Source: a virus (taxonomy: Duplodnaviria > Heunggongvirae > Uroviricota > Caudoviricetes). Taken from it: a stretch of DNA of 42,003 nucleotides. Positions 28,289 through 31,600 of the stretch are shown in pieces. The position numbers and the translations under genes are program-made. The stretch covers positions 1 to 42,003 of the IMG/VR virus record IMGVR_UViG_2671180896_000003. One strand, given 5' to 3'. A model generated the notes under the pieces. That model ran no database searches and was not told the DNA's origin. It worked only from the letters and a program-made list of their open reading frames with translations. The first letter of the stretch is position 1. Every line of letters starts with the position of its first letter.

Positions 28289-28306
28289 AATGGCCCCCAT
28301 TGCATG

Positions 28307-28326
28307 TACTGTGTTTTTATACAGTA
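28307..28326 (-). promoter_or_regulatory. LexA operator (SOS box) in dinI-like promoter
   Basis: TACTGTGTTTTTATACAGTA: CTGT-N8-ACAG, 19 bp upstream of the dinI-like ATG; candidate -35 TTGATC and -10 TATACT overlap it on the minus strand. Confidence 0.8.
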
Positions 28327-28388
28327 TACCTATGCGCGGAAATGATCAACGTTTTAAGAACACAAATTGTTAATTTTCTGTCAGTAGT

Positions 28389-28416
28389 AAAAAAAGAAAA
28401 CCCGCCGTAGCGGGTT
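28389..28416 (-). terminator. Intrinsic terminator (minus orientation) between accessory island and dinI-like unit
   Basis: AACCCGC-CGTA-GCGGGTT hairpin followed on minus strand by TTTTCTTTTTT. Confidence 0.6.
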
Positions 28417-28779
28417 GAATTAGCAGTGTTATATTAAGCGGCAATTTCTTTCTGCCGGCACAATCCCGAGAGATTCGCCCTCTGTATCGCATCATCAATG
28501 AGCACCTGTATGACCATGAGGCAAAGCGTTATCCAACTTGCATTCATCTTTTTCAATCAGCAAAGGAGTGGTTAGTGCTGTGAGTGGGCTTTGTTCACTT
28601 CATGGTAGATAAATCAGCTATGGATAAGTGATAAGAGGTGAAATCAATCCGAATTAACAACCTGAAGCACATTAATCGGAACACAGATATTAAAATCCTA
28701 AAGTCTAGTAACAAATAGCCGATATGAGATATTGCTTATCAGTTTAAAAATAATCTATTGAAAAAATGGGGGGGAGGCG

Positions 28780-29343
28780 TTGAAGCGAGTAGAGCGCGAT
28801 TTTATCTGTCTGTTTAATTGTGTGTGGTATCAAGATTTCCCTGTGTTCAAAGGTGAATATATCAACCGTTCCAACTGGACCATTCATGTTGGCCTGGTCA
28901 TGCGCGAGTGTGCAAAGTTAATGGGCGCAAGAACATTTTTTGAACAAGGCGGGCGTACCGATGCGGTCCTACAATATCCAGACAATCAAATTTTAACCTA
29001 TGTTGAGTGGGAGTATAATCAGGCAGACAGAGATAGCGTTAACGAGTTAGACAAACTGCTTGAAAAAAACGACAAGTGCTATTTCTCCACATTCATCTCA
29101 TATTGTCAGCATGAAAACATCAATATTGTTATTGAAAAAGCAAGTAGAATATGGAGTGAAGCAAGCAGGCCTTTGATTTTTTTTCTTATCACCTATGAGC
29201 CTCAAACGAAAAAACGCCGCCATTTTTTAGAACTCAGAACTTATTTTTTCTCAAACGGCAAAAGAAAACTAGTTCGCAAACAACCTGCGCTTCCATGGGA
29301 TATTGAGCAACGAAAATACAATGTCGAAGAAGATGCAGGATAG
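28780..29343 (+). CDS. Hypothetical protein, 187 aa, AT-rich accessory cargo (defence-like candidate)
   Basis: TTG start with GGGGGGAGG RBS; AT-rich codon usage unlike flanking phage genes; about 350 bp non-coding upstream; no family recognised. Contains YPD...YVEWEY segment that might be a degenerate nuclease motif (speculative). Confidence 0.6.
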   Translation: MKRVERDFICLFNCVWYQDFPVFKGEYINRSNWTIHVGLVMRECAKLMGARTFFEQGGRTDAVLQYPDNQILTYVEWEYNQADRDSVNELDKLLEKNDKCYFSTFISYCQHENINIVIEKASRIWSEASRPLIFFLITYEPQTKKRRHFLELRTYFFSNGKRKLVRKQPALPWDIEQRKYNVEEDAG

Positions 29344-29382
29344 AAGAGACATAAGGTTTTCACGACAGTCTCGTTTCGAGCC

Positions 29383-29764
29383 CTAACTAAAATATTCTGT
29401 TCGGAGCAACCAAATAGCTCTGGCTTTGCTGTGACCATGTTCGCGGTACCAACGCCTCTCTAGGTCCGCTTCTCGCTCATGGTGGACCAAAATCAAATCT
29501 AAAATGACGTGGCTAAGCGGGAGTACATAGTGAATGACAGGATGCTCCGGGCAGCACCATACTAATTCAGTTCCCGTCAGAGGTAGGCGTTGCTTCATGA
29601 TGGGATGAGCGCTCCCTCCAGACAATCCATGCGACAGCCGCCTCCCATGATATATATCCATTACCGCCATTTTTCGCTCTGCGGAGATTAACTGCATCAC
29701 CAAACCTTTCAATGATGAATTTTTCAAATTCTATGCGTTTTTCTTCGTCGATTGTTGAATCCAT
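29383..29764 (-). pseudogene. Two overlapping minus-strand ORFs in different frames (65 aa and 114 aa); possible frameshifted gene
   Basis: ORF 29567-29764 (MDSTIDEEKRIEFEKF..., RBS GGGGAAGG) and ORF 29383-29727 overlap by 161 nt in frames offset by one; together they would give about 120 aa. Confidence 0.35.
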
Positions 29765-29981
29765 ACCTTCCCCAGAAGAGTCCTACGAATCGCTCTTATT
29801 GCATAAAAAATAGCATATACAATAGAGAGTGAAAAACCGACGTAGCGGGTTAACTTTATGTTACTCATGAGTCTTGTCTCGCTGCGACTTAAAAGCGGAA
29901 CATTCTCGCGCAAGTTGCGTTGCTAAAGCTACGGGGTTGAATGGCTCTCCATGCCCATTTAAGAAGGCATGCGGTGTGTAG

Positions 29982-30010
29982 TTGAACGTTATTTAAAACA
30001 CAGATAGAAT
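29982..30010 (+). promoter_or_regulatory. Sigma70-type promoter for secreted-protein gene
   Basis: TTGAAC (29982-29987), 17-bp spacer, TAGAAT (30005-30010); about 35 bp upstream of ATG at 30044. Confidence 0.55.
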
Positions 30011-30043
30011 CAAGAAAAATCCTAAATAAATGGAATATTGTTT

Positions 30044-30424
30044 ATGGCTAAGAAAATCGCATTACTGGGCTTTTCTGCTCTTTTTGTTGCAAGTGTTGCT
30101 TTTGCTGAAACGACAAGTAACTGGGTTGAGGTTACTACAGCTGATGATGGCATTTTTTCAGCAAAAAAAGGCACATTTAGAAATGTAAAAGGTGATTCAT
30201 CTGCCTTGTTCATGTATCAAACAAAAAATAAAAAAGTAGAGTACTACAAAGTTAGTATTAAAGATGCCGACTGTGATAGTGGATATGGGGAGATAAGATT
30301 CTTCTATATGGATGGGAAATTAGCTTTCAAAGGTGATTATGTTGCTGATGGGAACAGTGTTGGCGCAGGTATTGGTGATTTTATGTGTGGGGTCAGAATT
30401 GGACTTAACACACAAAAAAGTTAA
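30044..30424 (+). CDS. Secreted/periplasmic protein (lysogenic-conversion candidate)
   Basis: From MAKKIALLGFSALFVASVAFA|ETT: signal peptide with AFA cleavage motif; mature about 105 aa with two Cys; own promoter. Confidence 0.7.
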   Translation: MAKKIALLGFSALFVASVAFAETTSNWVEVTTADDGIFSAKKGTFRNVKGDSSALFMYQTKNKKVEYYKVSIKDADCDSGYGEIRFFYMDGKLAFKGDYVADGNSVGAGIGDFMCGVRIGLNTQKS

Positions 30425-30464
30425 ATGAGGGGCATTTGTTAAAAAACAATAGCCCCACATTAGA

Positions 30465-30666
30465 TCAATATTGGCTCCGGCATTTCTGGATAAAAGCTTC
30501 TATGCTACGGCGCTCATAGCGAACAATCTTAGCGCTGAACTTTACACGGGGCCAATGTAGACCGGTGTCGGTGTTCTGTATTCCATTTACATAATGTTTT
30601 TTGCGTAATTCCCAGCTTCTGGCATACCTCGCCCGGAGTGAGGAGATCATCAGGTTGCTCAGTCAT
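30465..30666 (-). pseudogene. AlpA/Xis-family HTH regulator, frameshifted
   Basis: ATG 30664-30666 (RBS GAGG): MTEQPDDLLTPGEVCQKLGITQKTLCKW then premature stop; frame shifted by one continues with HWPRVKFSAKIVRYERRSIEAFIQK, the usual AlpA C-terminal pattern. Confidence 0.6.
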
Positions 30667-30838
30667 GTTATGCCTCGCTGTTATCTGGGGTGATGATTAG
30701 CAGCTTCCAGATGGCTGAGACATACATAGCCTGATGTTTCGCATCGACTAGGGCATTATGCATGTCACCTTCAAACGGCATGTCCCGAGTTCTCCCTTTT
30801 CGCCGCTTTCGCGTCGCATATTCTCCAAACGGTATTTA

Positions 30839-31396
30839 TCAATCATTACTGTTATCCTCGCAGTAGTAGTGCCGTCCCTCTGGGTCAGTAGATACATGTC
30901 CGCAGATATCGCATTCAATTCCAGGAAGCACCGATTCTGACTGCGCTTTGATATGCAGTCGCGGTTCACCGTCTTTCGGCTCTGGCCACTGGCGGTTTTT
31001 GTTAACCGCCAGCTTTTCTACCATCGCCAGGGTAATCTGCTTATCACTGATACCGGCACGACGTTGCGCATCCCATAACAGGAATTGCATGTCAGCCCAT
31101 TCGCTCATCTCGTCTGGTTCCGCAGCAGCCTCGATAGCTTCTTTGGAAAGGTGCTTCAGCGGACCAACTGGACCGACATCGCCGAATGTTTCATCTGACC
31201 ATGCTGCATGTTCACAGCGTACCTGCTCACGGGCTATCGACTCCAGAACCCCATCAATCACCTTCACTGCATCAGCCATTGCGTAGCCGAGATTACCGCC
31301 GTCGCTTTGTGCTGCTGCTTTGCTGAGTATTTCGCGTACCTGGTGCAAGCGATCAAGTGATACAGGACCGTGCGCCGGGTGGTTGTTAGTTGTCAT
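30839..31396 (-). CDS. Hypothetical early protein (possibly DUF550-like)
   Basis: 185 aa; C-terminal Cys/His cluster (CDICGH...YYCED); family recollection weak. Confidence 0.45.
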   Translation of the reverse strand: MTTNNHPAHGPVSLDRLHQVREILSKAAAQSDGGNLGYAMADAVKVIDGVLESIAREQVRCEHAAWSDETFGDVGPVGPLKHLSKEAIEAAAEPDEMSEWADMQFLLWDAQRRAGISDKQITLAMVEKLAVNKNRQWPEPKDGEPRLHIKAQSESVLPGIECDICGHVSTDPEGRHYYCEDNSND

Positions 31397-31399
31397 GGG

Positions 31400-31600
31400 T
31401 TAGTCCTCTACCTTGTTTCCGCAATGCGGGCAGTAATTGAACTTATGGGCGAATCCAGGATGCGGAACGGCAAAGCGTTTGGTTTTCTCGTTCCAGTCAG
31501 CAATTACGATTTCAAAATTTACGACCGCATTAGCCCAGTCACTGGAAAGAACTGGCTGCGACCCAATCAGGCCGACTATACAGCGATTACATTTTTCCAC
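31400..31600 (-). CDS. Small zinc-ribbon-like protein
   Basis: 66 aa with CxxC...CxxC (CNRC...CPHC). Confidence 0.5.
   Translation of the reverse strand: MEKCNRCIVGLIGSQPVLSSDWANAVVNFEIVIADWNEKTKRFAVPHPGFAHKFNYCPHCGNKVED

Follow-up and report, generated by a model that had tools for sequence, protein, structure and literature searches.

A small gene on the plus strand of a lambdoid prophage, lying within an operon that runs the other way, raises two questions: is it an accessory unit that a lysogen could express by itself, and what would its exported product do for the bacterium that carries it? Morons are among the chief means by which temperate phages alter their hosts, and most of them are unannotated. 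In the sense of Hendrix and colleagues, the term denotes autonomous accessory transcription units; lambda bor and lom, HK97 gp15 and P22 gtrABC are examples. The locus was analyzed within a stretch of 42,003 nt of IMG/VR record IMGVR_UViG_2671180896_000003 (Caudoviricetes), referred to here as the window, and all coordinates are positions in it. On comparative sequence grounds, the interval 29982-30456 appears to be a genuine phage moron encoding a predicted periplasmic protein. We call it a moron because its putative promoter moves with the gene, a hairpin closes the unit and its GC content is atypical. The moron is of an ordinary, well-known kind; the protein family that it encodes is unnamed.

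The prophage itself is readily placed. A 1,001-bp query (29700-30700) matched the prophage of E. coli PSJ-22 and ES7 at 100% identity and that of NCTC11023 at 99.8%. RefSeq annotation of PSJ-22 describes a Rac-like lambdoid prophage adjoining kch. Its plus strand carries int at one end, recE/recT and a cI-like repressor, and its minus-strand operon includes a cro-like regulator, ydaT, a replication protein, DUF977 and DUF550, followed further along by DinI, DUF1367, rusA, Q, lysis and terminase genes. The gene of interest had been predicted to be transcribed opposite to the surrounding early operon, and this layout agrees: the gene is on the plus strand, and the flanking genes, from cro and ydaT through replication to Q and lysis, are on the minus strand. 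Other features of the same region were also recorded. A 187-aa ORF with a TTG start (28780-29343, plus strand; a RefSeq hypothetical protein) likewise runs against the early-right operon, has a GC content of 40% and matched nothing in Pfam, PHROGs or PADLOC; it may be another moron. On the minus strand, the "DUF550" gene (30839-31396) matches the Pfam dATP/dGTP pyrophosphohydrolase family PF04447 (E 6.5e-41). Also on the minus strand, a canonical intrinsic terminator (28399-28416; a 7-bp stem with five G-C pairs, then a T-run) lies upstream of dinI in the minus-strand direction, inside the supposedly Q-independent early operon.

The immediate surroundings of the gene point to a second prophage. 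A piece of about 0.9 kb from the int-xis junction of a different prophage appears to have been recombined into the early-right operon of the Rac-like prophage. By blastn, window 29894-30787 is 93.6% identical to the int-xis arrangement of Citrobacter prophages (L018-L021), in which a 95%-identical protein is encoded between the integrase gene and converging genes for an excisionase and a 3'-5' exonuclease; a Kluyvera locus (L002) is 81% identical over the same span. The span reads as an int-xis fossil of a Citrobacter/Kluyvera-type lambdoid prophage, which adjoins the "DUF550" gene. What remains of the integrase gene is its last ~13 codons, with a translation that ends in NILAQVALLKLRG before the stop, versus SILAQVALLRRRS in the intact gene. 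The frameshift in xis divides that gene into ORFs of 45 and 61 aa in the window, and the final ~120 nt alone are left of the exonuclease gene. Amid these decayed int, xis and exonuclease genes, the cassette is the one part of the fossil that is whole, with an intact ORF, both promoter hexamers and the hairpin. Coordinates of all features are collected in Table 1.

Table 1. Features of the cassette and of the int-xis fossil that surrounds it, in window coordinates.
Feature	Position	Strand	Remarks
Integrase gene, 3' remnant	29894-29940	+	Matches the last part of the gene for the 465-aa integrase in Citrobacter loci L018-L021 (93.6% identity)
A/T-rich stretch with TGTG(A/T)-type motif	29954-29981	+	Just 5' of the -35 hexamer; possible UP element or regulator site
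-35 hexamer, TTGAAC	29982-29987	+	Read from the sequence; similarity to the window in independent contexts starts here
-10 hexamer, TAGAAT	30005-30010	+	17-nt spacer from -35; transcription start predicted near 30017
Weak Shine-Dalgarno-like GGAA	30032-30035	+	Putative; 8 nt 5' of the ATG; GGA(A/G) or GGGG equally spaced in homologous loci
Coding sequence	30044-30424	+	126 codons plus stop; RefSeq hypothetical protein WP_053271636.1 (E. coli PSJ-22)
Signal peptide	30044-30106	+	n, h and c regions and A-x-A conserved in all homologues
Mature 105-aa domain	30107-30421	+	Seven beta strands and a C-terminal helix (modeled); Cys77 and Cys115 invariant in the superfamily
G+C-rich hairpin	30429-30456	.	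5 nt past the stop codon; shared with the converging xis remnant
Excisionase (HTH_17-type) pseudogene	30465-30666	-	1-nt insertion frameshift relative to the intact 66-aa xis of L018; context, outside the cassette
3'-5' exonuclease gene, 3'-terminal fragment	30668-30787	-	Incomplete pseudogene in RefSeq; homology to L018 stops at 30787; context

In order to delimit the cassette, homologous loci were drawn from species-representative genomes, assemblies that encode homologues, complete E. coli genomes with their plasmids, and IMG/VR contigs, and window 28300-31500 was compared by blastn with loci L001-L022. The stretch that resembles the window opens at 29981/29982, where the -35 hexamer has its first base, and runs to 30422-30457, which is the stop codon or the hairpin. 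These limits recur in five groups of loci (L003/L004, L005/L010, L011-L013, L014-L016 and L017) whose flanks are unrelated, and at least five different insertion contexts were distinguished. With a GC content of 35% versus 53% for the window, the cassette is compositionally foreign to the prophage. The shared boundaries suggest that the promoter moves as one unit with the gene among unrelated phage and plasmid contexts.

The original prediction described a near-consensus promoter at 29982-30010, TTGAAC-17-TAGAAT. Direct reading of the sequence bears out both hexamers and their spacing; the term "near-consensus" is overstated, as 9 of the 12 positions match. Shuffled sequence yielded approximately six sites of this quality per 2.7 kb in a promoter scan, and by itself the match is no better than chance. 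The promoter is credible only because of comparative evidence, namely the shared boundaries, the kept hexamers and a constrained leader. Among the 35 loci with enough upstream sequence, 33 have TTGNNN-17-TANNNT at the same distance from the ATG. The -35 hexamer varies between TTGAAC, TTGTAC and TTGAAT, with TTG always retained, and the -10 hexamer between TAGAAT, TAGACT and TAAAAT, with the initial TA and final T always retained. In one group of loci (L109-L113), the spacer and the untranslated region have diverged and both hexamers are unchanged. Over the 62-nt leader that starts with the -35 hexamer and precedes the ATG, pairwise identity is 68-87%, versus 33-50% at synonymous sites, and the 62 nt further 5' are at the background level. 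The promoter is nevertheless not obligatory, since it is missing from the Klebsiella aerogenes loci (L006-L009), where the gene is preceded by a yecR-like lipoprotein gene and a hairpin.

Sequence upstream of the promoter also shows a pattern. The motif ATGTGAY occurs 6-9 nt 5' of the -35 hexamer, with A/T-rich sequence beyond it; together the two lie 6-30 nt from the hexamer and are weakly conserved in most of the otherwise unrelated contexts. They fall in the stretch that might serve as an UP element or bind a regulator (Table 1). For the TGTGA motif, a class II CRP site was considered and set aside, given a poor second half-site and a good -35 hexamer.

The original prediction of a signal-peptide protein with a mature part of about 105 aa and two cysteines holds. 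The 126-aa product begins with MAKKIALLGFSALFVASVAFA, followed by ETTSNW. Its signal peptide consists of a basic MAKK n-region, the segment IALLGFSALFVASV and a predicted cleavage site, AFA/E (slash, point of cleavage). The hydrophobic core is 17 residues long, with a mean Kyte-Doolittle value of 2.3. Neither a lipobox cysteine nor a twin-arginine motif is present in the 126-aa product, in which the first cysteine is residue 77. Judged by these features, export would be of the Sec/signal peptidase I type. A Cor-, Bor- or Llp-like lipoprotein is ruled out by the lack of a lipobox. The mature part (105 aa, 11.5 kDa, pI 6.5) has no second hydrophobic segment by hydropathy, and its two cysteines are encoded at 30272-30274 (Cys77) and 30386-30388 (Cys115). 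An in-frame TTG at 30038, taken from the list of open reading frames, was rejected as the start codon for want of conservation in the homologues. Scans of the region against Rfam and for tRNAs returned nothing.

Substitution patterns point to a genuine gene kept by purifying selection, with a median dN/dS of 0.18 over 50 pairs and values of 0.52 for the signal peptide versus 0.15 for the mature part. Two minus-strand ORFs (30022-30213 and 30320-30460) were rejected as real genes, as dN/dS favors the plus-strand frame. These values also bear on the skeptical view that an A/T-rich spacer has given rise to ORF and promoter by chance. A region of this kind should indeed contain several 9/12 promoter matches at random, but the low dN/dS, the 38 full-length homologues and 357 more distant clusters, a confident structure model and the conservation of the hexamers together with the gene all speak against it. 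The probability that we leave to this view is vanishingly small and, on this comparative evidence, we regard a chance ORF as excluded.

The 3' end of the cassette is marked by structure rather than by sequence. A hairpin lies a few bases past the stop codon in every context, and its sequence differs among contexts. In the window, it folds with -17 kcal/mol on the plus strand (z = -4.8) and -17.6 kcal/mol on the minus strand (z = -4.6). On the plus strand it has no U-tract, which is why the terminator scan made no call. The hairpin is probably a terminator or a 3'-end stabilizer.

The evidence so far agrees with the original prediction that the gene is a moron and a candidate for lysogenic conversion: the promoter appears to travel with the gene, the GC content is foreign, selection is purifying and the gene is intact amid decayed neighbors. 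In this particular prophage, the cassette might still be a silent passenger, dragged in with the 0.9-kb int-xis fragment by illegitimate recombination and either silenced by H-NS or not yet decayed. The gene does sit in a fossil whose other genes are dead, it is rare in E. coli, and a GC content of 35% would suit silencing. Moreover, identity among the three E. coli carriers is 99.8-100% over the 1,001 bp compared, which points to a recent event with little time for decay. Against this, within the same fragment xis is frameshifted and the exonuclease and int genes are truncated, and the ORF, hexamers and hairpin of the cassette are intact; gene and promoter are also constrained across the family. 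We consider a silent passenger unlikely. Since the three E. coli copies are nearly identical, the intact gene is weak evidence of selection in this prophage, and the family-wide constraint is the stronger evidence.

Carriers of the gene are diverse in kind and narrow in host range. The close family comprises 38 clusters, represented by full-length homologues, all of them from Enterobacteriaceae (Citrobacter, Kluyvera, Klebsiella, Raoultella and Escherichia, plus Enterobacter). The gene is found at the int-xis junctions of lambdoid (Citrobacter) prophages; at the ends of prophages, including thrW-integrated elements, either between int and tRNA-Thr or proA or beside invertase/resolvase genes; on P1-like plasmids of ~107-133 kb, beside humD- and hot-like genes; and on 25 IMG/VR viral contigs, mostly ~2 kb from the contig end. 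The gene is rare: among 5,426 complete E. coli genomes, 7 carry it, and neither megablast nor tblastn (E ≤ 1) found it in 50,697 sequenced phage records. No conserved partner or immunity gene was seen in any context examined, and a toxin-immunity pair is ruled out by the lack of a partner gene. A gene for a YecR-family lipoprotein lies directly upstream (~50-140 nt) in L003, L004, L006-L009 and L028; the YecR-type gene and the moron gene may form an array of small exported cargo proteins.

Beyond the close family, the protein belongs to an unnamed family of predicted exported proteins that is absent from Pfam, NCBIfam and PHROGs despite hundreds of clusters. The 126-aa protein matched nothing in Pfam (E ≤ 10), PHROGs (E ≤ 10), NCBIfam or PADLOC (E ≤ 1), and Pfam and NCBIfam likewise assigned no family to 60-61 sampled relatives. 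A profile search of 1.84 billion cluster representatives recovered 357 clusters at E ≤ 1e-3, of which 70 also reached E ≤ 1e-10, with superfamily clusters defined at 50% identity. Most members are 120-145 aa long and carry a signal peptide. Gly82 is invariant along with the two cysteines, and Trp27 and Gly103 are nearly so. Variant domain architectures were found among distant relatives (P0154, P0045, P0047, P0188, P0108 and P0187): tandem two-domain forms of ~240 aa, one domain that is C-terminal to a trypsin-like protease, and two with His-rich N-terminal extensions. The distant and chromosomal relatives (L022-L026 and L087-L092) are isolated genes, among which no conserved neighbor was seen. 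Many distant relatives come from environmental metagenomes, and one chromosomal locus has betaproteobacterium-like neighbors.

Structure prediction had been proposed as a check on the protein, and AlphaFold2, given a 33-sequence alignment, returned a confident model. The mature part has a pLDDT above 90 throughout and is modeled as seven strands followed by a helix (residues 106-125); the N-terminus, corresponding to the signal peptide, is a low-confidence helix. Foldseek comparison with viral models (BFVD) gave as the top two matches phage proteins annotated "Surface-adhesin protein E" (E ~1e-3, TM ~0.5). A Foldseek search of the PDB gave nothing significant (best E 0.15). Searching PDB sequences with the family profile (E ≤ 10) yielded chance matches only, and PseM, discussed below, was not recovered.

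The BFVD matches lead to Protein E of Haemophilus influenzae, which has a six-stranded sheet and a C-terminal helix tied to a strand end by Cys99-Cys148 (PMC6652776). Its Pfam family is Adhesin_E (PF16747), and its PDB entries include 3zh5 and 6gus. In the model, the cysteine pair is topologically analogous to that of Protein E, and no sequence or profile similarity was detected: neither this protein nor the 60-61 relatives matched Adhesin_E, versus 65.6 bits for Protein E itself, and hhalign of the family profiles with Protein E or its family gave a probability of 7-11%. The helix cysteine fell on Cys148 of Protein E in a local alignment that is not significant. Protein E also carries a lipobox, LLTAC/S, whereas the moron protein has AFA/E and no lipoprotein signal, and so no surface anchor.

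The gene might accordingly be read as a virulence-type conversion gene, whose product would act in adhesion, vitronectin or plasminogen binding, or serum resistance in the manner of Protein E. The annotation of the best BFVD matches, the analogous cysteine pair and the presence of human and animal isolates among the carriers are in its favor. This reading has to contend with the missing Adhesin_E match and low hhalign probabilities, with a soluble periplasmic protein that, having no lipobox, would lack outer-membrane anchoring and has no evident route to the surface, and with distant relatives that are in many cases environmental, one of them at the locus with betaproteobacterium-like neighbors. 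A host-interaction factor of this type is improbable in our estimation.

The second structural comparison is with PseM of Pseudomonas aeruginosa (also TdeM or PA0989; PDB 9m3l) (PMC12494544). PseM is a Sec-exported toxin that acts in the periplasm, is reported to be an endolytic muramidase and has an adjacent immunity gene (PA0990-like); its fold is an eight-stranded sheet with a disulfide (Cys87-Cys134) from a strand end to a helix, and its C-terminal helices form a dimer (PMC12494544). No structural homologue was reported in that work (PMC12494544). The PseM sequence was recovered from metagenome contigs via the published cloning primers and confirmed against 9m3l_A. Strand order and lengths in our model match beta1-beta7 of PseM with an offset of ~10 residues (a constant 10 for beta2-beta6), and the cysteine pair of the model is topologically equivalent to the sheet-to-helix pair of PseM. 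At the level of sequence, hhalign gave a probability of 0.6%, and in an insignificant local alignment Trp27 fell on PseM Trp33.

The two proteins also differ in several respects. The moron protein, of 126 residues, is shorter by 60 and stops 11 residues past Cys115, whereas PseM runs 52 residues past Cys134. PseM residues ~145-186 (beta8, alpha5 and alpha6), which form the dimer and contribute to the proposed substrate crevice, are absent. The position of PseM Arg90 (Cys+3) is a conserved Gly in the moron family, by an argument from register rather than by structural alignment. PseM is associated with a type VI secretion system and has its adjacent immunity gene, whereas the moron is a single-gene cassette without such an association. 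Because there is no sequence-level link among the three proteins, the model suggests a modest resemblance of the moron protein to Protein E and PseM in fold only, rather than family membership.

These comparisons decide how far a PseM/TdeM-like peptidoglycan hydrolase, used in competition as a toxin or by the phage as an accessory factor in lysis or entry, deserves consideration. Such a function would fit the matching strands, the sheet-to-helix cysteine pair found in both proteins, and the Sec signal peptide and periplasmic action of PseM. Sequence and profile similarity are nonetheless lacking, the dimer and crevice region is missing and Arg90 is replaced by Gly. Furthermore, no immunity gene lies in or beside the cassette in any context, and a constitutive wall hydrolase without immunity would harm the lysogen. 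We think a hydrolase very unlikely. It is conceivable, although we would not expect it, that the superfamily (at least 357 clusters, with no Pfam entry and an invariant cysteine pair) is a widespread and unrecognized group of periplasmic domains bridging the folds of Protein E and PseM, with a phage branch directed at peptidoglycan, either as a minimal wall-binding or wall-cutting module or as a decoy or inhibitor of such enzymes.

The reading that we prefer is an autonomous moron, expressed in the lysogen, that encodes an exported, disulfide-bonded periplasmic binding module shielding the envelope of the lysogen; as a whole, we give it an even chance. It would work as follows. A unit of one sigma-70 promoter, one gene and a closing hairpin (29982-30456) would move among temperate phages of Enterobacteriaceae. 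In a lysogen, the minus-strand early operon would be repressed and the plus-strand promoter of the cassette would give a short monocistronic mRNA. Sec would export the 126-aa precursor, with cleavage after AFA21. In the periplasm, the 105-aa product would fold into a seven-stranded sheet, with its helix pinned by a Cys77-Cys115 disulfide made by DsbA; this bond is proposed from the model, from the invariance of the two cysteines and from the comparable disulfides of Protein E and PseM. The product would then act as a soluble periplasmic binding module to the benefit of the lysogen.

We favor binding over catalysis because there is no partner gene, no membrane anchor and no recognizable catalytic motif, and also because the part of PseM that forms the dimer and crevice is missing and, in relatives, the domain appears as an appendage or in tandem. 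The likeliest route to a benefit is that the module shields an envelope target, such as peptidoglycan or a point of entry or attack, from superinfecting phages or wall-degrading effectors. This shielding function is a guess, and a doubtful one; the roles first suggested for the protein, envelope modification and a block to superinfection, are guesses too. No PHROG or PADLOC match to a superinfection exclusion or defense protein was obtained, and nothing in the data is specific to exclusion or protection. A further point against the preferred reading is that a GC content of 35% could attract H-NS silencing. The 9/12 promoter match, the hairpin without a plus-strand U-tract, the K. aerogenes loci that lack the promoter, the modest fold resemblance and the rarity of the gene count against it as well.

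Compared with known systems, the cassette resembles the classic morons in being a unit of putative promoter, gene and probable terminator between phage genes, with deviant composition and presence or absence among related phages. Its orientation would likewise permit expression from a repressed prophage, and its product is predicted to be targeted to the envelope. Unlike Bor and Cor, which are lipoproteins, or Lom, an outer-membrane protein, the product is predicted to be soluble in the periplasm, and it is unrelated to any named moron product. Envelope exclusion and anti-lysozyme factors include T4 Sp, phi80/N15 Cor, T5 Llp, Ivy and PliC. Like these, the moron protein is small and predicted to be exported; they are encoded by phages or hosts and act by binding rather than catalysis, which is the mechanism favored here.

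For comparative work, the boundaries of this moron are unusually clean, from the -35 hexamer to the hairpin, and mobile elements of at least three kinds (lambdoid prophages, thrW-integrated elements and P1-like plasmids) have picked it up. It is a well-defined unit and is convenient for experiments on the role of a secreted accessory protein of phages. The modeled fold hints at a link between the adhesin Protein E and the muramidase PseM, and a phage branch directed at peptidoglycan, if real, would alter the susceptibility of lysogens to superinfecting phages or wall-degrading effectors. Should envelope protection not be its role, the gene would be one more hypothetical cargo gene; should it be, the protein would represent a new family in the superinfection-exclusion and anti-effector repertoire.
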